Below, piece after piece: positions 4,008 to 47,127 of a stretch of DNA of 64,000 bases (its first letter is position 1; the number at the start of each line of letters is the position of its first letter). Made by a program: the position numbers and the translations under genes. Source of the stretch: Vicinamibacterales bacterium (GTDB lineage Bacteria; Acidobacteriota; Vicinamibacteria; Vicinamibacterales; UBA2999); NCBI GenBank assembly GCA_035711805.1, contig DASTBV010000147.1:91334-155333 (forward strand). Reading direction: 5' to 3'. Under the pieces are notes generated by a model that saw nothing but the letters and a program-made list of their open reading frames with translations, made no database searches and was not told where the DNA came from.

Positions 4008-5998
4008 GTCTTTTTGAGCATAGCACCTGAGCCGCGGGCGACCTGCTGAGGTACAGACGCCGGCATCCGCAGCCTGGCCTTCGGAGCGTATAAGCCGGCG
4101 GCGTAGCTGACGGCCGGCGATCCGTCCGGCTCGAACCACACGAGGCTGACGCCGCGCTCGATCGTCAGCACCGGCTCGCGCCCGCGCAGGACGTGACCAA
4201 ACCCGGCCCGGCGGAACGTGTCGAACGGCAGCCACGACTCGATGCGCACCGCGAATGGGTCGCCGAGAATCGTGAACGCCGATCGGAATGGACGGTTCGA
4301 TTCGCGATGCTCGGCGCCGGGTTCACCGCTGATCCCGGCCCAGACCTGGTAGCGTGCCGCGCTTCGGGGTGGAGCCGATCCACCGGCGAGGATCGCGAGC
4401 GCCCGATCGAAATCGTCGATGTCGACCGCTTCGCCTCCTGCAGGCTCGAGCAGTGTCAGAACGTAGGGCGTGCCGCGCGGGAGTGCCTCAACGCGATCGG
4501 CAATTCCTCGCGGCGGGACGGTGTCTGCCGCGAGAGGAAAGAACGTTCCGTATGCGCTCACAACGCGGGCAGCGGCGTTGCCGGCGAGCACGACGTCGCG
4601 GCCGATCGCATGGTTGTCGGCCACCAGGAACGGAAGATGCGGCAGCACCTCTGCGGCTCGGCGCCATGCCAGCTGGCGCCGTTCGTATCGCGACGAATAC
4701 AGGAGCGCGTTTTCCAGCTGCCAGTCCATGTCGGAGAGAAGCACGGCATTCGTGTCGCTGATGCCGGCGGTGACACCGGCGACGAAGGCATCGGCGCGCC
4801 GATCGCGGCTGCGGTCGGCACTTGGCCATGTATCCCACCCACGCCATCCTGCATACGCGAGCAGAGCTGCGATTGCGACACTCGACAGGAGGGGCACCCC
4901 TGAAAGGGACGCCCGACGAGTCGACGGCGTGTTGTCCGGAGGGCGTCCCTTGACGGAGCGCCATCCGGCAAACAGCGCGGCAATCGCCAGCGCGGTGAGC
5001 GCGTGACCGGGCAGAAAGAACACGTGAGGATCGCCGACGTTATAGGTGACGGCGAATATCGTGTTGACGAGGTAGGCGCTGACAAAGAGCAGCGCCCATG
5101 GACGGGAGAAGAGCCATAGCCGGATGACGCCGGCGATGGCGAGCGCCAGACCGGCCAGTCCAAATTGCAGCCGCGCATCCCAGATCCACATCGCCATGCG
5201 TTCGGCGAGCTCACTCCGATCGACGCCGGCCATCATCGTGCCGCGCCAGTCCGACTTGGTTGCATCGAACCAGAACGTGGCGAGGCGATCGCTCCAACGC
5301 GGCGGCGCATCGATGTTCGTCCACACGAACAGGACGTTGGGCGCGTAGAGAAGAGCGCCGGCACCGGCGATGCCAATCGCCAGACCGATCGTGCCCGGCC
5401 GCAGGAGATCGCGCGGCCGCGGGTGCGCGAGCACGAGGAACAGCGCAAACGGCAGCAGCAGCAGAAGCATCGACAGGTGGTTGCCGAATGAAAGCGCATA
5501 CACCGCGAAAAAGGCGGCGAGCCGGCGCCGTGTCGGCTGCTGGCTATACGCGTACAGCGCGAGCAGGCAGCAGGCGATCAGCGCGATGTGCAGGGTGTAG
5601 ACCTCCGCGATGACCGACTGCGTCCAGAATGTGTGCGAGAAGGCGAGGAGCAGTCCGGCGGCGGCGCCGGCAGCGGCGCTCGTCGTCAGCAGGGCCGCGA
5701 AACACGTCAGCAGGCCTGCGGCGAGACCGCCCGCGAGCGCCGAGAACAGATTGAGTCCGCGCGCCGGGTTGTCCGGGCTGACGGCGAGGACGAACGGCCG
5801 TGCGAGTGAGTAATACAAGGGGTAGGCCTGCCGCGCGCTCGTCTCCGGCCACAGGACGGCTGCCTGAAAGCCGCCGGTGTCGCCCAGATCCACGCCGGGA
5901 AGCAGCGTGCGGGCGTACACGGAGAACGCAATCGTTCCCACCACGCACGCAACGAGAACGGCGCCCCTGAACGGGGGCCCTGCGTTATCCGCGCGCAC
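3992..5998 (-). CDS. DUF2723/GT-C-fold (PMT/ArnT-like) polytopic membrane glycosyltransferase-like protein
   Basis: Many transmembrane segments and an N-terminal DLGDTGGFQAAVLWPETSARQAYPLYY motif typical of DUF2723/TMEM260-like proteins, plus a C-terminal soluble domain. The start is uncertain: GTG 5998 is chosen, and the track start is 6112. Confidence 0.7.
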   Translation of the reverse strand: MRADNAGPPFRGAVLVACVVGTIAFSVYARTLLPGVDLGDTGGFQAAVLWPETSARQAYPLYYSLARPFVLAVSPDNPARGLNLFSALAGGLAAGLLTCFAALLTTSAAAGAAAGLLLAFSHTFWTQSVIAEVYTLHIALIACCLLALYAYSQQPTRRRLAAFFAVYALSFGNHLSMLLLLLPFALFLVLAHPRPRDLLRPGTIGLAIGIAGAGALLYAPNVLFVWTNIDAPPRWSDRLATFWFDATKSDWRGTMMAGVDRSELAERMAMWIWDARLQFGLAGLALAIAGVIRLWLFSRPWALLFVSAYLVNTIFAVTYNVGDPHVFFLPGHALTALAIAALFAGWRSVKGRPPDNTPSTRRASLSGVPLLSSVAIAALLAYAGWRGWDTWPSADRSRDRRADAFVAGVTAGISDTNAVLLSDMDWQLENALLYSSRYERRQLAWRRAAEVLPHLPFLVADNHAIGRDVVLAGNAAARVVSAYGTFFPLAADTVPPRGIADRVEALPRGTPYVLTLLEPAGGEAVDIDDFDRALAILAGGSAPPRSAARYQVWAGISGEPGAEHRESNRPFRSAFTILGDPFAVRIESWLPFDTFRRAGFGHVLRGREPVLTIERGVSLVWFEPDGSPAVSYAAGLYAPKARLRMPASVPQQVARGSGAMLKKTWLEN

Positions 5999-8647: not shown

Positions 8648-9730
8648 ATGCCCACGATTAAGAAAATTGGCGTTCTGACCGGTGGAGGCGATGCGCCCGG
8701 TCTCAACGCCGTGATCCGCGCCGTCGTGAAGGCGGCGTCCAACTCGCAGATCCAGGTCGTGGGCCTGGAGGACAGCTTCGATGGGCTGATCTACCCGGAG
8801 AAGTCCCGCCTGCTGACGCCGCGCGACGTCACCGGCATCCTCAGGCTCGGCGGAACGATTCTCGGCACCGTCAACCGCGGCGACCCGTTCGCCCAGCCGA
8901 TCCAGACCCCCGAAGGCACGTTCGACTATGGCGACCGCGTCGTCGAGATGTTTCAGAAGATGGGCCTCGATGCGCTCGTCTGCATCGGTGGCGACGGCAC
9001 GCTGGCGATTTCGTACGAGTTCTACAAGAAGGGCATCCCGCTGGTGTGCGTGCCGAAAACCATCGACAACGACATCGTCGGGACGACGAGCTGCTTCGGA
9101 TTCGACACGGCGGTCGATTTCGCGACGGAGTCGATCGACCGTCTGCACTCGACCGCAGAGGCCCACCGCCGCATCATGGTCGTCGAGGTCATGGGACGCT
9201 ATGCCGGATGGATTGCGCTGCACAGCGGCGTCGCCGGCGGCGCCGACGTGATTCTCATTCCCGAGATTGCGTACGATCTCGAACGCGTCGCGCAGTGCAT
9301 CCGCAATCGTGACGACTGGGGCGCGCGCTTCAGCATCGTCGTCGTCGCCGAGGGGGCGCATGCAAAGAACCAGCGGGCGGCCGTCATCGCGGAAGCGCAC
9401 ACGGGCCACGCCGAGCGGCTCGGCGGAGAAGGCGCGCGCGTGGCGAAGCAGCTGGAGGAATTGACCGGCAAGGAGACCCGCTACGTGATCCTCGGCCACC
9501 TGCAGCGCGGCGGCAGCCCGACGGCGTTCGATCGCACGCTGGCGACGCGGTTCGGCGGCAAGGCCGTCGAACTGATCCTGAAAGGGCAGTTCGGCAAGAT
9601 GGTGGCGAATCATCCGCCGGACCTCGTTCCCGTCCCGCTGGGTGAAGTCGTCGGCAAGACGAAGACCGTGCCGCTCGACTACGACCTCCTGACCACCGCC
9701 CGTGCGATGGGGGTGTCGTTTGGAGACTGA
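8648..9730 (+). CDS. pfkA: 6-phosphofructokinase (phosphoryl donor not assignable from sequence)
   Basis: 360 aa with IGVLTGGGDAPGLNAVIRAVV, CIGGDGTL and PKTIDNDI motifs. Confidence 0.9.
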   Translation: MPTIKKIGVLTGGGDAPGLNAVIRAVVKAASNSQIQVVGLEDSFDGLIYPEKSRLLTPRDVTGILRLGGTILGTVNRGDPFAQPIQTPEGTFDYGDRVVEMFQKMGLDALVCIGGDGTLAISYEFYKKGIPLVCVPKTIDNDIVGTTSCFGFDTAVDFATESIDRLHSTAEAHRRIMVVEVMGRYAGWIALHSGVAGGADVILIPEIAYDLERVAQCIRNRDDWGARFSIVVVAEGAHAKNQRAAVIAEAHTGHAERLGGEGARVAKQLEELTGKETRYVILGHLQRGGSPTAFDRTLATRFGGKAVELILKGQFGKMVANHPPDLVPVPLGEVVGKTKTVPLDYDLLTTARAMGVSFGD

Positions 9731-9842
9731 CGCGCGGTGGCTGCGAGCGGGCACCGGTCGGTCGAGGCATCTGACGCCGATCGGTGCAACGCGGCTGACG
9801 CTGATTGGTGCAAGACGTCTGACGCTGGTCGGTCCAAGGGTG
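9727..9842. repeat. Array of CTGACGC-initiated repeats (three 24-nt units plus one longer unit)
   Basis: Units at 9771, 9795 and 9819 follow CTGACGCYGRTYGGTSCAA. A longer variant lies at 9727-9770, and its CTGACGC contains the pfkA TGA stop. Confidence 0.75.
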
Positions 9843-9877
9843 TCAATTCGCGGCGGGTGGTACGCGGAGAGACTGAG

Positions 9878-10324
9878 ATGTTGCGCTATCTGAAAGGTCT
9901 GCTGGCGGCGTTTCTACTATTTGGCCTTGCGTTCTTTGCGACATCTGTCGTGGCTAGCCAGTTGGGCAGGAGCAGACTCGTCAGCTGGCATTCGCTGATC
10001 GACATCTGGATTGGGTTCGGGGTGCCATCGCTGATCTTGTTGGCAGCTGGCATCGGCCCGATCGTTTTAGGAGTCAGTCACGCGGTTGGTGGCACATTAT
10101 CCGTCCGCTCGGCAGGATTGCTCGGCACGGTGCTCAGTCCAATGCTCGCACTCGCGGTCATGCGACTCTATCCAGAAGGCGAGACCCTCGAGAACCTATT
10201 TCAGTACTGGCTCCGATTTCCCGGCCAATTCGTCCTGGGCGTCATTCCGTGCGCGGCAGCCACTGCGTTCTTTGCTGGTTGGGTCGCTTCTCATCAGCGG
10301 CGATCGCGACCGCAGACTGCCTAA
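9878..10324 (+). CDS. Hypothetical small polytopic membrane protein with atypical codon usage
   Basis: 148 aa from ATG 9878 with about 4 hydrophobic segments. It has many A/T-ending codons (cta, tta, aca, gga, agt, cca, caa), unlike its neighbours. It is flanked by inverted repeat arrays. Confidence 0.5.
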   Translation: MLRYLKGLLAAFLLFGLAFFATSVVASQLGRSRLVSWHSLIDIWIGFGVPSLILLAAGIGPIVLGVSHAVGGTLSVRSAGLLGTVLSPMLALAVMRLYPEGETLENLFQYWLRFPGQFVLGVIPCAAATAFFAGWVASHQRRSRPQTA

Positions 10325-10345
10325 CAGACGACGACCGAAGCGGCT

Positions 10346-10414
10346 TCACCGACCGGCGAAGTCTGATTGCACCGACCGGCGGAAGCGCGAATCGCACCTG
10401 CCTGCCTGCGTCAG
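10346..10414. repeat. Inverted copies of the 9727-9842 repeat
   Basis: The reverse complement reads CTGACGC..., CTTCCGCCGGTCGGTGCAA and CTTCGCCGGTCGGTGAA. The terminal GCGTCAG (10408-10414) contains the frr stop codon. Confidence 0.7.
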
Positions 10415-10980
10415 TGACCGAGTAACTCCTGGTCCTTTTTCTTCTGCAGCTCGTCGATCGTCTTGACGTGATCGTCGGTCATCTTCTGAATCTGGTCGAG
10501 ACCCTTCCGCTCGTCGTCTTCCGAGATCTTGTGCTCCTTCAGGAGCTTTTTGAGGCGCTCGTTGGCATCGCGGCGCACCTGGCGGACGGCGTTGCGGCCT
10601 TCCTCCGCCTGCTTGTGCACGTGCCGTGACAGCTCCTTGCGGCGTTCGTCGGTGAGGGAGGGGATCGGAATGCGGATGACCTTGCCGTCGTTCGCCGGGT
10701 TCAAGCCGAGGTCGGACGATCGGATCGCCTTTTCAATCGCTCCCATCAACGACGGGTCGAACGGCTGCGCGATCATCATCGACGGCTCGGGAATCGACAG
10801 GGTGGCGACCTGGTTGATCGGCATCTTCGAGCCGTAGGCCTCCACGTGAACGCTGTCGAGCAGACCGACGGTGGCCCGTCCCGTTCGGACGTTCGCCATA
10901 TCGCGGCGGACGCGGTCGATGCCGCCGTCCATCCGCGTTTTGACTTCCGCAAACATGCCTTTCAGATCGCTGAATTCCAT
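10411..10980 (-). CDS. frr: Ribosome recycling factor
   Basis: 189 aa, full-length match in character to Frr (VRTGRATVGLLDSVHVEAYGSKMPINQVATLSIPE...). Confidence 0.95.
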   Translation of the reverse strand: MEFSDLKGMFAEVKTRMDGGIDRVRRDMANVRTGRATVGLLDSVHVEAYGSKMPINQVATLSIPEPSMMIAQPFDPSLMGAIEKAIRSSDLGLNPANDGKVIRIPIPSLTDERRKELSRHVHKQAEEGRNAVRQVRRDANERLKKLLKEHKISEDDERKGLDQIQKMTDDHVKTIDELQKKKDQELLGH

Positions 10981-11022
10981 GCTCTCACCTGGTTTGTGGT
11001 TGGTGGTTAGTCGCTGGCCGCG

Positions 11023-11769
11023 CTAACCACGAACTGGCTCATGAGACACCGTCGTGCCGATGGGGTCACCAAGCACGACTCGGCGGATGCTGCCGGTTTC
11101 TCGGAGATTGAATACGACGATTGGCAGCTTGTTGTCCATGCAGAGGGAAATGGCCGTGGCGTCCATGACCTTCAACTGCCGCTCGAGGACCTGCAGATAA
11201 GAAATGCTTGGGTATTTGGTGGCCGCCGGGTCGAGCATCGGATCGGCGGTGTAGACGCCGTCGACCTTGGTGCCCTTCAAGATGACCTCGGCCTTGATCT
11301 CCATGGCGCGCAGCGCGGCGGCGGTATCGGTCGTGAAATACGGGTTGCCGGTGCCGGCGGCGAAGATGACGACGCGGCCTTTTTCCAGGTGGCGGATGGC
11401 GCGCCGCCGGATGAACGGCTCGGCGACGGCACGCATCTCGATCGCCGTCACGACGCGCGTCAGCACGTTCTGCTGCTCCAGGGCGTCCTGCAGGGCGAGG
11501 GCATTGATGACCGTCGCCAGCATGCCCATGTAGTCGGCCGTCGCGCGGTCCATCCCGCGCGCACTCGCCGCGAGCCCGCGAAAGATGTTTCCACCGCCGA
11601 TGACAATGGCCGTCTCGACGCCGAGGGCCTGAATCTCGCCAACATCGCGGGCGATGCGCGTGGCGACAGCCGGATCGACGCCGAACTGCTGTTCGCCCAT
11701 CAGGGCTTCACCGGAGAGTTTGAGAAGGACGCGCTTGTAGATCGGGGTCGAGGAGGAGTCCGCGGACAT
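11023..11769 (-). CDS. pyrH: UMP kinase
   Basis: [13 protein letters not shown]...[11 protein letters not shown]...[23 protein letters not shown] 11769 is chosen; the track start is 11808. Confidence 0.93.
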
Positions 11770-11787
11770 CGAAAGACGATTATTGCA

Positions 11788-11885
11788 GGCCCAAGGGCTA
11801 AGGCCCAAGGCCCAAGGGCTGGTCCAGGTATAAGGCGGCTCATGCCTCGACCAGTCCTTAGGCCTTAGGCCATGGGCCTTGGGCC
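11788..11885. repeat. Imperfect palindrome of about 98 nt built from GGCCCAAGG-type units (tsf-pyrH intergenic)
   Basis: The left arm (11788-11824) and right arm (11849-11885) are complementary at about 31 of 37 positions by hand alignment. Confidence 0.75.
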
Positions 11886-17424: not shown

Positions 17425-19656
17425 ATGTATCGACACTCCCTCCTCCTGGGCCTTTCTATCGCGGCGTTCGTGTTGTCGCCGCTCGGTGTCGCGGGAACGC
17501 GCACCGAAGGCGAACGCGGCGCGGCCGCGACGCTCAGAAAAGTGACGTCGCAGCTGGATGCGCAAAAGGGAATTCTCAGCATCGAAGCGTCCGCTCCGGT
17601 CGCGTACGTGGCGTCGCAGCCGGATGCGCGGACGACGATTGTGGAGATGCGGAACGTCGCAGCCGGCAGCATCGGCGACGTGACTGTTGACCAGCGGCAC
17701 CCGATTGATGCGGTGAAGGTCGAGAGCGTCGTCAGCCCGGCAGGGGAGTCTCTGGCCCGTGTGCTGATCACATTCCGTCAGCCGGCGCGGCCGCGTATCC
17801 GCAGCTCGCGCAATGTGATCTTCGTCGAAGCCGACCGCATCGACCCCTCGACGTCGCTCGGGGCGGGCCCCTCGACGGGGCTCGGGGCGGGCGGCTCGAC
17901 GGCACCGTCCCGCACCGCGATGGGCCCGAAGCTCGATTTGCAAACCTTCTCGCCGGCGATTCGCGACCTGCGCGTTACGCAGCGGGGCACGGCGACGGCA
18001 ATCACGCTCCTTGGCACGGCGCCGCTCGTGGCGTCGGGCATCCAGGAGCCGAAGGATGCGCCGCGCCGGATCGTTCTCAATCTTCCACAGGCGACGTCCG
18101 CCATACCGACCACCATGCGCGTGGTCCGCGAGGGGCCGGTCGAGCGTGTGCGTGTTTCCATGAGTCCCGCCGCGCCGTTCGGTACGCAGGTCACGATGGA
18201 ACTATCGCGCGCCGCGACCTACCGGCTCGAATCATCGGCGGACGGCAACGACCTCTCGGTGGTGTTCGACGAGCCGGCGGCGGATCCGATCGCGGCGCTT
18301 CGTTCGCCAGTACCGTTGGCCGCAGCCCCACTACAGGCGCCGGCACCGGCACCGCCGGTGGTTGCCGCCCCGCAGCAGCCAGCCGCTCCGCTCCAGGTCG
18401 AAGCGGGGCAGCGCCAGTTCACCGGCACTCCGGTCAGTCTCGATTTCGACGGCACCGATCTGCGGGCCGTCCTGACGGCGCTTGCCAAAGAGGGCGGAAT
18501 CAACATCTGGATCGACCCGCGGGTGCAGGGAACGGTGACGACGACGCTGACCGACGTTCCGTGGGATGAGGCGTTCGACATCATCGCCAGCGGGAACGGA
18601 TTGGGTTACGTCCAGCGCGGTTCCGTCGTCCGCGTCGTGCCGCTGGCGGTGCTCGCGGAAGAGGAAGCGGCGCGGCGAAAGGTCGAGGAGGAGCGCGCGC
18701 TTGCGGGCGAGCTGCGGACCTATACCAAGTCGCTCAGTTACGCGACGGCGAAGGAACTGGCGACGCTGGTGAAGGACACGGTTCTGTCGCCCCGCGGGCA
18801 GGTGCAGGTCGACGACCGAACCAACACGCTCATCGTCACCGATCTTGTCGATCGGCTGGGGCGAACCGAAGACCTGATTTCGAAGCTCGACGTGCCGCAG
18901 CCGCAGGTGGAGATCGAGGCGCGTATCGTTCAGACGAGCCGCGACTTCGCCCGGCAGATCGGTGTGAACTGGGGCGTGAACGCCCGGGCCTCAACTGATC
19001 TTGCCAACACGACGGGGCTGACGTTCCCGAACCAGGGCAGCATCAGCGGCCGCACGGGCAGCGCCCAGGGACCCGATGGTGTGCCCACCGTCGTGGATCA
19101 GGCCGTGACGAATCCATCGAGCGCGATCGGCCTGGCGCTGGGATCGATCAATGGCGCGATCAACCTCGATATCGCGCTCTCGGCGCTCGAGCGTTCGGGC
19201 AAGGGAAAAATCCTGTCGACGCCGCGGGTCTCGACGCAGAACAACGTCCAGGCCGAGATCATGCAGGGCGTCCAGATTCCGATCCAGACCGTGGCCAACA
19301 ACACCGTGACCGTCACGTGGAAGGACGCGGCGCTGATTCTCCGCGTGCTGCCGCAGATTACGGCCGCGAATACCGTGATCATGAAAGTCGAGCTCGAAAA
19401 CGGATCGCCCGACTTCGCACGCGCCATTGAAAACAACCCGCCGATCAACACCCAGCGGGCGCTGACGAGTGTTCGCGTCGCCAACGGCGACACCACGGTC
19501 ATCGGCGGCATCTTCCTGAGTACCGAGCAGGCCACCCAGTCCCGTACGCCGGGGCTCAGCAAGGTCCCGCTCCTCGGCTTGCTGTTCAGGCGCGACGAGG
19601 TGACGGATGAGAGCCGAGAGCTGCTCATCTTCATCACGCCGCGGATTATTCAGTAG
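17425..19656 (+). CDS. pilQ: Type IV pilus secretin PilQ with N-terminal AMIN-like repeats
   Basis: 743 aa with a C-terminal secretin domain (...GGIFLSTEQATQSRTPGLSKVPLLGLLFRRD...LLIFITPRII). The N-terminus has repeated AMIN-like modules. Confidence 0.9.
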   Translation: MYRHSLLLGLSIAAFVLSPLGVAGTRTEGERGAAATLRKVTSQLDAQKGILSIEASAPVAYVASQPDARTTIVEMRNVAAGSIGDVTVDQRHPIDAVKVESVVSPAGESLARVLITFRQPARPRIRSSRNVIFVEADRIDPSTSLGAGPSTGLGAGGSTAPSRTAMGPKLDLQTFSPAIRDLRVTQRGTATAITLLGTAPLVASGIQEPKDAPRRIVLNLPQATSAIPTTMRVVREGPVERVRVSMSPAAPFGTQVTMELSRAATYRLESSADGNDLSVVFDEPAADPIAALRSPVPLAAAPLQAPAPAPPVVAAPQQPAAPLQVEAGQRQFTGTPVSLDFDGTDLRAVLTALAKEGGINIWIDPRVQGTVTTTLTDVPWDEAFDIIASGNGLGYVQRGSVVRVVPLAVLAEEEAARRKVEEERALAGELRTYTKSLSYATAKELATLVKDTVLSPRGQVQVDDRTNTLIVTDLVDRLGRTEDLISKLDVPQPQVEIEARIVQTSRDFARQIGVNWGVNARASTDLANTTGLTFPNQGSISGRTGSAQGPDGVPTVVDQAVTNPSSAIGLALGSINGAINLDIALSALERSGKGKILSTPRVSTQNNVQAEIMQGVQIPIQTVANNTVTVTWKDAALILRVLPQITAANTVIMKVELENGSPDFARAIENNPPINTQRALTSVRVANGDTTVIGGIFLSTEQATQSRTPGLSKVPLLGLLFRRDEVTDESRELLIFITPRIIQ
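17844..17900 (+). repeat. In-frame 24-nt tandem repeat (about 2.4 copies) inside pilQ
   Basis: cccctcgacgtcgctcggggcggg / cccctcgacggggctcggggcggg / cggctcgacgg. It encodes PSTSLGAG-PSTGLGAG-GST in a linker. Confidence 0.8.
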
Positions 19657-35280: not shown

Positions 35281-36516
35281 TCAGCTCTCCGCTACGGTTG
35301 TTTCCTTGGCTGGTGCGATCCGTTCCTCCACGAATGTATTCCATTCGTGGCACTGGGGGCACTGCCAGAGCAGCTCGGTGCTGCGATAGCGGCAGTGCGT
35401 GCACACATGAGGGTCGAGGTAGAACACCGCATCGCGTGTCAGCGCGACATAGCGCCGCACCAGATCCTGGTTCAAACCCAGCGCAAGCAGCGCCTGCCAG
35501 ATCTCCTGGTGCACGACCAGCCCATGCGGATTGTGGGGCAGCGACGCGAGGAGCAGGTCGAAGGCTTCGCGCGCGTTGCCGGCGGCGGCGTAATAGCGCG
35601 ACAGCGCCAGCCGAGCGCGCCAGTCCTGCGGATTCCGAGCGATCAGCTGCTGACACAAGGCGACGAACCGCTGCGGCGAACCAGAGCCCTTGTACGCCCG
35701 TTCGAGCCGTTCATACGCCAGATATGCGCGTTCCGGGATCGTTTCGACAAGGCTCTCCCACGCCGCGATGGCAGCGGCCGTGTCGCCGCGCTGAAAGTGC
35801 ATGTCGCCCAGGTTGAGATAGGCCGGGGCCGTCTTCGGATCGATATCGATCGCCTCGCGAAACATGGCCGAGGCGGCTTCCGCGTCGCCCCCCCGGACGG
35901 TCTCGGTGCCGAGCTGGTTGCGGAGAAAACCGAGGATCTGCTGATTCTCGGGCCGGCGATGACCGTCGATCCTGGCAATCTGGGCGCGCACGCGCTCGGC
36001 GTCCGCCCATTGCTGCTGATCCTCGTGCAGCTTCTGCAGGTTGACGAGCGCGTAGCGGTTTTCGGGATCGAGCTGCACGACTTCCTGAAACGCTTCGAGC
36101 GCGCGATCGACGAATCCGCCATGCCGGAAATCCAGGCCGAGGCAGAGCAGCACGTAGGCGTGCTCGAGACGCGTGAGGTTGGTGCGCTGCAGCAGCGCCT
36201 GGTGCACGGTGATGGCGCGGGCGACCTGCCCCTTCTGCCGGTAGAGGTTGCCGAGGATCATCTGAATTTCGAGGGCGTCGGTGTCGCTGCTCGTGGCGGC
36301 CGTCAGTTCCTCGATGGCCTGATCGACCTGATGCTCGGTGAGGAAGTTCAGGCCGAGCATGTAGTGCGGTGTCTCGCGCAGGCGGCGGCGATCGATCCAC
36401 CGCCCGTCGCGCAGCTTGTATCGCTCCCACGCCTTGCCCGCGATGAGGCCAACGAGCAGGGCCAGCAGGGCGGCGAGAAGGGGAAGGTATTGACTCACGG
36501 CGAAGTCAAAAGGCAA
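35281..36516 (-). CDS. lapB: Lipopolysaccharide assembly protein LapB (YciM)
   Basis: N-terminal transmembrane segment, TPR array and a C-terminal rubredoxin-like CTHCRYRSTELLWQCPQCHEWNTF. The start is ambiguous: TTG 36516 lies inside the repeat, and GTG 36498 is the alternative. Confidence 0.85.
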   Translation of the reverse strand: MPFDFAVSQYLPLLAALLALLVGLIAGKAWERYKLRDGRWIDRRRLRETPHYMLGLNFLTEHQVDQAIEELTAATSSDTDALEIQMILGNLYRQKGQVARAITVHQALLQRTNLTRLEHAYVLLCLGLDFRHGGFVDRALEAFQEVVQLDPENRYALVNLQKLHEDQQQWADAERVRAQIARIDGHRRPENQQILGFLRNQLGTETVRGGDAEAASAMFREAIDIDPKTAPAYLNLGDMHFQRGDTAAAIAAWESLVETIPERAYLAYERLERAYKGSGSPQRFVALCQQLIARNPQDWRARLALSRYYAAAGNAREAFDLLLASLPHNPHGLVVHQEIWQALLALGLNQDLVRRYVALTRDAVFYLDPHVCTHCRYRSTELLWQCPQCHEWNTFVEERIAPAKETTVAES

Positions 36517-36600
36517 AAGTCAAAAGGCAAGAGTCAAAAGGCAAAAGTCCAAAAGCCAAGATCACAAGTCTTTTGCCTTTTGCCTTTTGACCTTTGACTT
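36505..36600. repeat. Four tandem 14-mers GTCAAAAGGCAAAA followed by inverted copies (kdsD-lapB intergenic)
   Basis: Units start at 36505, 36519, 36533 and 36547. The 15-mer CTTTTGCCTTTTGAC at 36577-36591 is a perfect complement of the units at 36505 and 36533. Confidence 0.8.
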
Positions 36601-46486: not shown

Positions 46487-47044
46487 ATGCCGTCGATTAA
46501 GGCCGATCGCTGGATAAAGAAGATGGCCCTCGAGCACGGGATGATCGAGCCGTTCGAGGACCGTCAGGTGAGAAAGGGCGTCATCTCCTACGGCCTCTCG
46601 TCCTACGGCTATGACATCCGCGTCGCCGACGAGTTCAAGGTCTTCACCAACATCAACAGCACCGTCGTCGATCCGAAAAACTTCGACGCGCGGTCGTTCG
46701 TGGACGTAAAGGCGGACGTTTGCATCATCCCGCCGAATTCCTTCGCCCTGGCCAAGACCGTCGAATACTTCCGGATCCCCCGGAACGTCCTTACTGTTTG
46801 CGTCGGCAAATCCACCTACGCGCGCTGCGGGCTGATTGTGAACGTCACGCCGTTCGAGCCGGAGTGGGAGGGATACGTCACGCTCGAGATCTCGAACACG
46901 ACGCCGCTGCCGGCGAAGGTCTACGCGAATGAGGGCATTTCCCAGGTGCTCTTCTTTGAGAGCGACGAAGACTGCGAAGTCTCCTACGCGGACAAGGCGG
47001 GCAAGTACCAGAAGCAGCAGGGCCTGACGCTGCCGAGGCTCTAA
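46487..47044 (+). CDS. dcd: dCTP deaminase
   Basis: [23 protein letters not shown]...SSYGYDIRV...GKSTYARCG...EP.WEG.VTLEISN. Confidence 0.93.
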
Positions 47045-47127
47045 TGCAGAATGCAAAATGCAGAATGCAGCCGCGGACTGCTGATGCTACCCGTTGCATG
47101 CATTCAGAATTCTGCATTCTGAATTTC
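47045..47127. repeat. Palindromic element of TGCAGAA/TGCAAAA heptamers with inverted GCATTCT/GAATTCT heptamers (dcd-hisS intergenic)
   Basis: The left arm (47045-47070) starts 1 nt after the dcd stop. The right arm (47095-47127) ends 6 nt before the hisS ATG. CAGAATGCAG and CTGCATTCTG pair perfectly. Confidence 0.8.

Follow-up and report, generated by a model that had tools for sequence, protein, structure and literature searches.

The DNA considered here is a window of 64 kb (65% GC) from the genome of a member of the Vicinamibacterales (Acidobacteriota), and all statements about this genome refer to these 64 kb, the only part of it that was examined. Within the window the genes pfkA and frr are convergent, and between their stop codons lie arrays of short repeats and an open reading frame (ORF) for a protein of 148 amino acids, designated ORF148. 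An earlier note, made from the letters of the window, had proposed that this interval is a discrete inserted cassette with a foreign-looking gene, which is borne out by empty sites in many relatives and by codon usage that makes the ORF a real outlier. Missing from that note are the integron cassettes related to ORF148 and the stop-to-stop palindromes found throughout the order. The features of the locus are the following.

8648–9730, plus strand: pfkA, ATP-dependent phosphofructokinase, the left flank (Pfam PF00365, PFK, E = 2.9e-103; GC content at third codon positions, GC3, 0.86), with its TGA stop at 9728–9730.
9727–9770, plus strand: unit 0 of the upstream array, 44 nt, composed of the heptamer CTGACGC (9727–9733), which holds the pfkA TGA, and a further 37 nt with a degenerate core, GCACCGGTCGG, at 9751–9761 (inverted pair I13).
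9729–10412, plus strand: the presumed inserted segment, 684 bp, GACGC...GCGTC, which by comparison with outgroup junctions splits an ancestral junction GAC-T/AG-TG at the slash.
9751–9789, plus strand: local GC-rich hairpin of 11–13 bp formed by units 0 and 1 (I13), kept in the centroid DNA fold and with no U-tract after it.
9771–9842, plus strand: three tandem 24-nt units (starts 9771, 9795, and 9819), each CTGACGC, 5 nt, a GGTGCAA-like box, and 5 nt.
9866–9871, plus strand: Shine-Dalgarno-like GGAGAG, read from the sequence, 6 nt before the ATG of ORF148.
9878–10324, plus strand: ORF148, 148 amino acids with four hydrophobic helices, supported by its HMMER family, AlphaFold, codon usage, and the ratio of non-synonymous to synonymous divergence (dN/dS).
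10319–10325, plus strand: GCCTAAC, a match to the inverse core of integron attC sites (R'', RYYYAAC), which contains the TAA of ORF148.
10342–10387, minus strand: two inverted copies of the core at 23-nt spacing (cores 10344–10357 and 10367–10380).
10408–10414, minus strand: heptamer GCGTCAG containing the frr stop (inverted pair I17).
10411–10980, minus strand: frr, ribosome recycling factor, the right flank (Pfam PF01765, RRF, E = 2.7e-63), with its stop at 10411–10413 (TCA on the plus strand).

Insertion of the 684-bp segment was lineage-specific and took place at a formerly overlapping pfkA/frr junction. A PfkA scan with one genome per species gave 52 loci, and in eight Vicinamibacterales species (L013, L015, L019, L025, L029, L032, L038, and L041) the stops of pfkA and frr, on opposite strands, share 4 nt (GAT TAG/TTA; near positions 5080–5083 of these loci, 1527–1530 in L041), so that these convergent essential genes have no intergenic DNA between them. 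The stops abut or are at most 10 nt apart in five further species (L014, L018, L034, L037, and L040), and the junction is essentially abutting also in L046, a distant member of the Acidobacteriota with a PfkA that is 66% identical. A junction filled with the cassette was found only in the clade of the window, L012, and L064. In the flanking genes the synonymous divergence (dS) is 0.16 between the window and L012 and about 0.4 between the window and L064; for L013 and L014, which are the closest species with an empty site, it is 0.65–1.1. Among the outgroups, L018 and L040 have the junction GACTAGTG and L014 has GACTAG. In the window the sequence is GGAGACT, followed by 9729–10412 and then by AGTGACC, and removal of the segment restores an empty site of the GACTAGTG type. 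A target-site duplication was not found at the edges of the insert, which is probably to be placed at the centre of the overlapping CTAG, where its terminal GA and TC would recreate a TGA stop for both genes.

Two other species have long stretches of other DNA at the same place. In L043 (1185–1785) the junction is filled by a 599-bp spacer with nested long inverted repeats, and in L031 (5083–7319) by a 2.2-kb insert apparently with genes. The pfkA-frr junction looks like a recurrent insertion hot spot.

The cargo of the insertion is a real gene. The exact ORF148 protein is recorded as HET9195275.1 from a metagenome-assembled genome (MAG) of the Vicinamibacterales. A word-indexed protein search returned only its own 90% cluster with 11 sequence variants, always encoded between pfkA and frr, and from this search ORF148 appeared to be an orphan; this was overturned by an exhaustive HMMER search, which retrieved 22 family representatives that are full-length, 30–44% identical (best E = 4.8e-22), and share the conserved motifs GP...E-ET...FW-R-PGEF..GV-P. 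With the family alignment AlphaFold predicts a helical bundle (mean predicted local distance difference test, pLDDT, 91; predicted TM score, pTM, 0.83), and the roughly four membrane segments noted earlier for the 148-residue ORF are confirmed as four hydrophobic segments. Between ORF148 and the L064 allele there are 9 synonymous changes (4.8 expected under neutrality) and 9 non-synonymous ones (13.2 expected), and the dN/dS of 0.36 is the best of the three frames. It is because of the full-length relatives, the confident fold prediction, and the synonymous excess that we regard ORF148 as a real gene. It is also a foreign gene, since its GC3 is 0.64 as compared to 0.82 ± 0.04 for 55 genes of the window (z = −4.4) and its codon-adaptation-index-like value has a z of −4.6; the codon usage that had struck the earlier reader as unlike that of the neighbours is therefore indeed that of an outlier. 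Foldseek found no match in the PDB with E < 1, and Pfam and NCBIfam assigned ORF148 and its homologues to no family, DUF2627 remaining below its threshold. A longer reading of 195 amino acids from the GTG at 9737 was rejected: the homologues start at the M-x-R-Y of ATG 9878, and the extension consists of translated repeats.

Homologues of ORF148 are found in integrons. Three independent lineages are located in integron cassette arrays, namely P0020 (L074–L077), the homologue in L078 and L079, and P0034 (L084), of which P0034 is the closest relative outside the own cluster (44% identity). In these arrays small consecutive ORFs are separated by sites of 72–170 nt that extend from GCCTAAC to GTTAGGC or GTTAGAC. 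An alignment of ten of these attC sites has 96% of its cells paired, nine compensatory pairs, and the expected single extrahelical base, and the covariance model built from the ten (R1) recovers 19 attC sites in the homologue loci at 38–86 bits, 5 of them outside the training set. The arrays also hold toxin-antitoxin genes and an IS110 element: an IS110-family transposase gene (L074, 1635–2747; L075, 1232–2344) occupies the position of an attC of L077, immediately before the P0020 cassette, and the P0020 array with IS110 carries in addition ParE and PemK toxin cassettes.

The stop codon points in the same direction. GCCTAAC overlaps the stop of the cassette-borne homologues in L076, L079, and L084 as it does in ORF148, all of them ending GCC TAA C, and RYYTAAC is found at the stop of 0 of 55 window genes. 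The GC3 is 0.68–0.72 in the cassette-borne members, 0.64 in the window ORF, and 0.78 in the chromosomal members that are linked to a Macro-domain gene. The pool of integron gene cassettes is the most likely source of ORF148, which is nevertheless no integron cassette today. The Macro-linked members are three other homologues, which are chromosomal and overlap the start of the adjacent Macro-domain gene (L072, 4001–4994; L080, 1–700; L083, 1008–2448); in L080 and L083 this gene is followed by BlaI- and BlaR-like genes. The Macro-linked arrangement may be the native operon of the family. Near 1460–1482 of L082 a tandem heptamer, GACTGAG, with at least four copies is located downstream of a family member that adjoins a BrnT toxin gene. 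A metagenome scan with a six-sequence profile added three short loci only.

The repeats on both sides of ORF148 are less regular than was first described. Of the four upstream units reported in the earlier note, with three being exact 24-nt copies, the 24-nt spacing and the three starts hold; the copies are, however, only about 80% identical, and the fourth unit is 44 nt long with a degenerate core. Of the three inverted copies reported downstream two are clear, the third being the terminal heptamer alone. The 14-nt core GCYGRTYGGTSMAR has five matches in the 64 kb (three on the plus and two on the minus strand) where 0.11 are expected, all of them at the locus, and the stop context of pfkA, CTGACGC, opens every upstream unit. 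The outermost heptamers do contain the stops of the flanking genes, as had been pointed out, and the ends form a perfect 8-bp terminal inverted repeat, ACTGACGC/GCGTCAGT. This repeat is nevertheless weak evidence because 5 of its 8 bp (ACTGA) are dictated by the xAC TGA with which both genes end.

The two arms are complementary. Cofolding arm to arm gives a free-energy gain (ddG) of −28.8 kcal/mol versus −8.9 ± 3.7 kcal/mol in shuffled sequences, with 0 of 200 shuffles as good. RNA folds of the whole cassette are on either strand no more stable than those of shuffles (z = −1.1 and +0.3), though the ends pair; local folds at the locus are not above shuffles, and neither flank alone folds above chance. 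A scan of 9000–11500 against Rfam at permissive thresholds gave noise only. The repeat unit was not found again in the rest of the window or in about 450 kb of related Vicinamibacterales DNA, its uniqueness within this genome referring to the 64 kb; among 83 fetched loci it occurs only at the orthologous locus and is absent from the other 64 fetched loci. A search of a plasmid collection with the cassette gave no match, and ORF148 has no plasmid or phage relative.

Strains differ in the copy number of the arms. Upstream there are four units in the window and in L012 and one in the L064 lineage, where it is fused directly to the pfkA stop in six independent assemblies. Downstream L001 and L009, which are Logan contigs and could be chimeric, have two extra units (47 nt), the range among strains being 2–4. 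In L012, a low-coverage MAG (1.75x), the interior of ORF148 is deleted, from which ORF148 appears to be dispensable; the remaining 251-nt spacer still pairs end to end (z = −3.5). All 27 contigs carrying ORF148 share the pfkA-frr context. In L001 and L070 a deletion of 1 nt before the TAA (GACTG-CTAAC, corresponding to window 10319–10321) abolishes the stop, so that the ORF runs on antisense into frr and reaches 194–242 amino acids; this deletion may be genuine polymorphism or the result of faulty assembly.

The divergence between the window and L064 is not uniform along the cassette. The flanking genes differ at 8–9% of sites (dS 0.35–0.44) and the unique parts of the arms together with the 5' untranslated region at 12–20%. 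ORF148 differs at only 4% (dS 0.08, 4–5 times lower than in the flanks), its first 180 nt at about 1%, and the 60 nt after it at 3%. Because its dS is far below that of the flanks, the core of the ORF has been exchanged between the lineages since their split, and with breakpoints that lie within the cassette, homologous exchange between cassette-bearing strains fits better than transposition. The repeat units differ at about 3% between the window and L064 as compared to about 12–20% in the unique spacer segments.

Repeat-built stop-to-stop palindromes are a general feature of the order Vicinamibacterales. Eight relatives have a compact hairpin from stop to stop at the same junction (z = −4 to −9), the stems consisting for the most part of tandem heptamers with the gene end as seed, for example GTGATTA-GTGATTT-GTGATTC...AATCACG-AATCGCT. 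In 329 kb of DNA (L012–L043 plus the window) there are 25 inverted heptamer arrays, or about one per 13 kb. The arrays are intergenic, fold with z = −5 to −12, and are locus-specific in their unit (AGGCCCA, AAGGCAA, AATGCAG, and others), and the hairpins usually begin at or just past a stop codon. We know of no description of heptamer-array hairpins anchored at stop codons. Three of the arrays are in the window.

11787–11885: inverted heptamer array.
36503–36600: inverted heptamer array.
47043–47125: inverted heptamer array.

In four relatives palindromes resembling REPINs (paired repetitive extragenic palindromes, REP) are found at the pfkA-frr junction beside CTACG/CGTAG, those in L016 and L017 being nested inside heptamer hairpins.

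L016 and L017, about 5140–5170: GCGCAGGCTGAAGCCTGCGC or a close variant.
L027, 1787–1859: GCGCAGGCTGAAGCCTGCGC or a close variant.
L035, 5083–5163: analogous palindrome.

The reading that we favour, and to which we give about an even chance, is that ORF148 is a stranded membrane-protein gene of the cassette pool, without attC, inserted at the overlapping stops of pfkA and frr and now inside a repeat-built palindrome made by the host. The gene for a small four-helix membrane protein would have entered from the integron cassette pool, lost its recombination site, and become stranded. The arms would be the two halves of a stop-to-stop palindrome such as members of this order build at the 3' ends of genes from tandem copies of stop-adjacent sequence, with a unit of 24 nt rather than 7, and would lengthen and shorten through slippage. 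That they were made by the host, and are not the ends of a mobile element, is suggested because the motif is unique to the locus, its copy number varies, the upstream units start with CTGACGC, and the relatives have heptamer hairpins. ORF148 would lack a promoter of its own and be translated from read-through transcripts of pfkA via GGAGAG, since a promoter scan predicted no sigma-70-like promoter in 9400–10800, a terminator scan found none at the ends of pfkA and frr or between the two genes, and GGAGAG is 6 nt before the ATG. The arms may pair in RNA or in single-stranded DNA, thus bracketing the gene, and the paired arms could stand in for the compact bidirectional hairpin of the relatives.

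It should be noted that several observations weigh against this reading. At the window locus R1 scores at best 8.4 bits with filters off, which is noise. GCCTAAC lacks a GTTRRRY partner, and the 3' flank on its own folds with z = −0.7 and −1.05 as compared to −5.9 for real attC. Twenty ORFs of the window with the size of an integrase were tested, and all proved to be housekeeping genes and not integrases. The Macro-linked homologues end in GCCTGAC or GCCTGAT, one nucleotide away from GCCTAAC, so that the GCCTAAC of ORF148 could have arisen independently; as a relic it is suggestive, not conclusive. In a neighbour-joining tree without support values the window ORF branches between the cassette clade and the Macro-linked clade. 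The 24-nt period differs from that of the heptamer hairpins used as analogy, and among the loci compared there is no lineage with arms but without ORF148, so that an order of events, palindrome first or gene first, can only be conjectured. Likewise, read-through expression and pairing of the arms in vivo are steps we infer. R1 found no attC in L064, L012, L001, and L009 either. Its matches at 4583 and 12643 of the window were dismissed as they are inside housekeeping genes and are devoid of the conserved AAC/GTT of core sites.

Alternatively, the arms themselves could be integron debris. The insert would then stem from part of a cassette array or from a circular cassette whose attC opened in its apical loop. 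It would span the L'-R' half of one attC, ORF148, and the R''-L'' half of the next, with the palindromy later amplified in tandem, and the attC sites concerned would have had TTGCACCGACCGGCG/GCCGGTCGGTGCAA arms. There are GGTGCAA-type boxes upstream, and downstream GCCTAAC is followed by boxes of the TTGCACC/TTCACC type; the 7-5-7-5 substructure of the units is like R box, spacer, L box, spacer; and the 3' unit TTGCACCGACCGGCGG resembles L'' arms of the homologues' arrays, matching that of attC L079_2 at 14 of 16 positions and that of L078_1 at 13 of 14 with one gap (empirical p about 0.02–0.05). Smith-Waterman alignments of both flanks with nine attC sites are, however, weak (individual p 0.02–0.3), with summed scores that are borderline on the 3' side (p = 0.05) and without signal on the 5' side (p = 0.27). 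The matches of two nhmmer profiles, one of 11 attC 5' halves and one of only the L'' arm, were random and did not include the locus, where the covariance model also finds noise. Moreover, there is no GTTRRRY between the upstream boxes and ORF148, every upstream unit opens with the stop context of a host gene, and the L064 lineage has a single unit. We consider debris unlikely. Somewhat less probable still are paired operators, which the earlier note had suggested for DNA looping; a regulator would bind the arrays, as operators or iteron-like sites, and either loop the DNA or control the gene for the membrane protein. A motif so far above expectation, in regular arrays on both sides of one gene, is what such sites would look like, and between the window and L064 the units have diverged less than the unique spacer has, although for the downstream units this may reflect the recently exchanged ORF tract. 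But close strains differ in copy number (1–4 units upstream, 2–4 downstream), the 24- and 23-nt spacings do not correspond to helical repeats, the genes next to the locus include no regulator, and neither the rest of the window nor the homologous cassettes contain the motif.

The other proposal of the earlier note was a non-autonomous foldback element or miniature inverted-repeat transposable element (MITE) with terminal inverted repeats built from subrepeats and with ORF148 as passenger. The segment is indeed discrete and missing in relatives, it ends in inverted arrays and the perfect 8-bp repeat, and its interior is less diverged than the flanks. The low-divergence tract is, however, inside the cassette and does not end at its termini; the arms are unequal (four versus two units, 24 versus 23 nt) and variable between strains; the interior encodes a conserved, well-folding protein family; and neither a further copy of the unit, be it in the 64 kb, the related DNA, or plasmids, nor a plasmid or phage relative of the ORF, nor a target-site duplication, nor a second genomic context of the ORF was found, while most of the terminal repeat is forced by the ends of the genes. 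A mobile element of this kind is therefore highly improbable. Finally, that gene and repeats are ancestral at this place and were lost repeatedly in the relatives is effectively refuted. The cassette is common to the window, L012, and L064, and its decay in L012 shows that loss happens; against this stand 13 species with overlapping or nearly abutting stops including the distant L046, codon usage 4.4 standard deviations from that of the host genes, a silent divergence of 0.08 in the ORF versus 0.4 in the flanks, and family members elsewhere in unrelated contexts.

Among known systems the stranded-cassette reading comes closest to SALINs, which are isolated integron cassettes outside integrons, cassettes being inserted at genomic attG sites (Loot et al., bioRxiv 10.1101/2022.09.11.507474). 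As in SALINs, a single small atypical ORF is inserted in a housekeeping region in which no tested ORF is an integrase, its homologues, including the closest, are bona fide cassettes, its stop is within an RYYYAAC inverse core, and a target duplication is lacking. Unlike SALINs, which are defined by a detectable attC, the locus has none by covariance model; the presumed target CT/AG in GACTAGTG is without the GWT consensus of attG, which is present in junctions of the GATTAG type; ORF148 is 147 nt from the left junction and not about 15–20 nt; and the flanks are tandem-repeat arrays. With bidirectional intrinsic terminators the locus has in common that it is exactly between convergent stops with stems from or in the stops, and the hairpins of the relatives are compact; the arms in the window differ in being about 500 nt apart and enclosing a gene, in having no U-tract, and in folding singly at chance. 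In cyanobacteria, short tandemly repeated repetitive (STRR) sequences are heptamers in intergenic DNA. The TAACTGA direct repeats of Beggiatoaceae are also short tandem units in intergenic DNA (PMC4679880). The Vicinamibacterales arrays are like both in being intergenic and tandem with a locus- or lineage-specific unit, and unlike both in being inverted, hairpin-forming pairs seeded by stops, here with a unit of 24 nt instead of 7. REP, REPIN, MITE, and bacterial interspersed mosaic elements are likewise palindromic and extragenic and occur between convergent genes, as do the palindromes in L016, L017, L027, and L035; the window unit, however, is confined to a single locus in all DNA examined, has no conserved GTAG-type head, and carries a protein gene.

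A gene of the cassette pool that became fixed outside any integron, between the overlapping stops of two essential genes, would occupy the tightest possible spot. Since empty, filled, and decaying states have all been sampled, the fate of a stranded cassette could be traced here through loss of attC, read-through expression, and exchange between strains. The cargo belongs to a family of membrane proteins predicted to fold confidently and without a match to a Pfam or NCBIfam family or to a solved structure. Most interesting among the loose ends are the stop-anchored tandem-repeat hairpins found as a family throughout the Vicinamibacterales, apparently an undescribed habit of this soil order; the hairpins may serve as its form of terminator and as a source of hypervariable intergenic DNA. 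A tentative and rather doubtful extension is that the Vicinamibacterales have an active, hitherto undescribed process that builds stop-anchored palindromes at the 3' ends of genes by copying stop-adjacent sequence in tandem, usually in units of 7 nt and here of 24 nt, and mirroring it in the other arm, and that the centres of such palindromes capture foreign genes between essential genes, including cassettes that then lose their attC.

A second tandem repeat with a 24-nt period, CCCCTCGACGGCGCTCGGGGCGGG, is present with 2.5 copies at 17844–17903 of the window within a long ORF (17425–19656); its sequence is unrelated to that of the pfkA-frr units.

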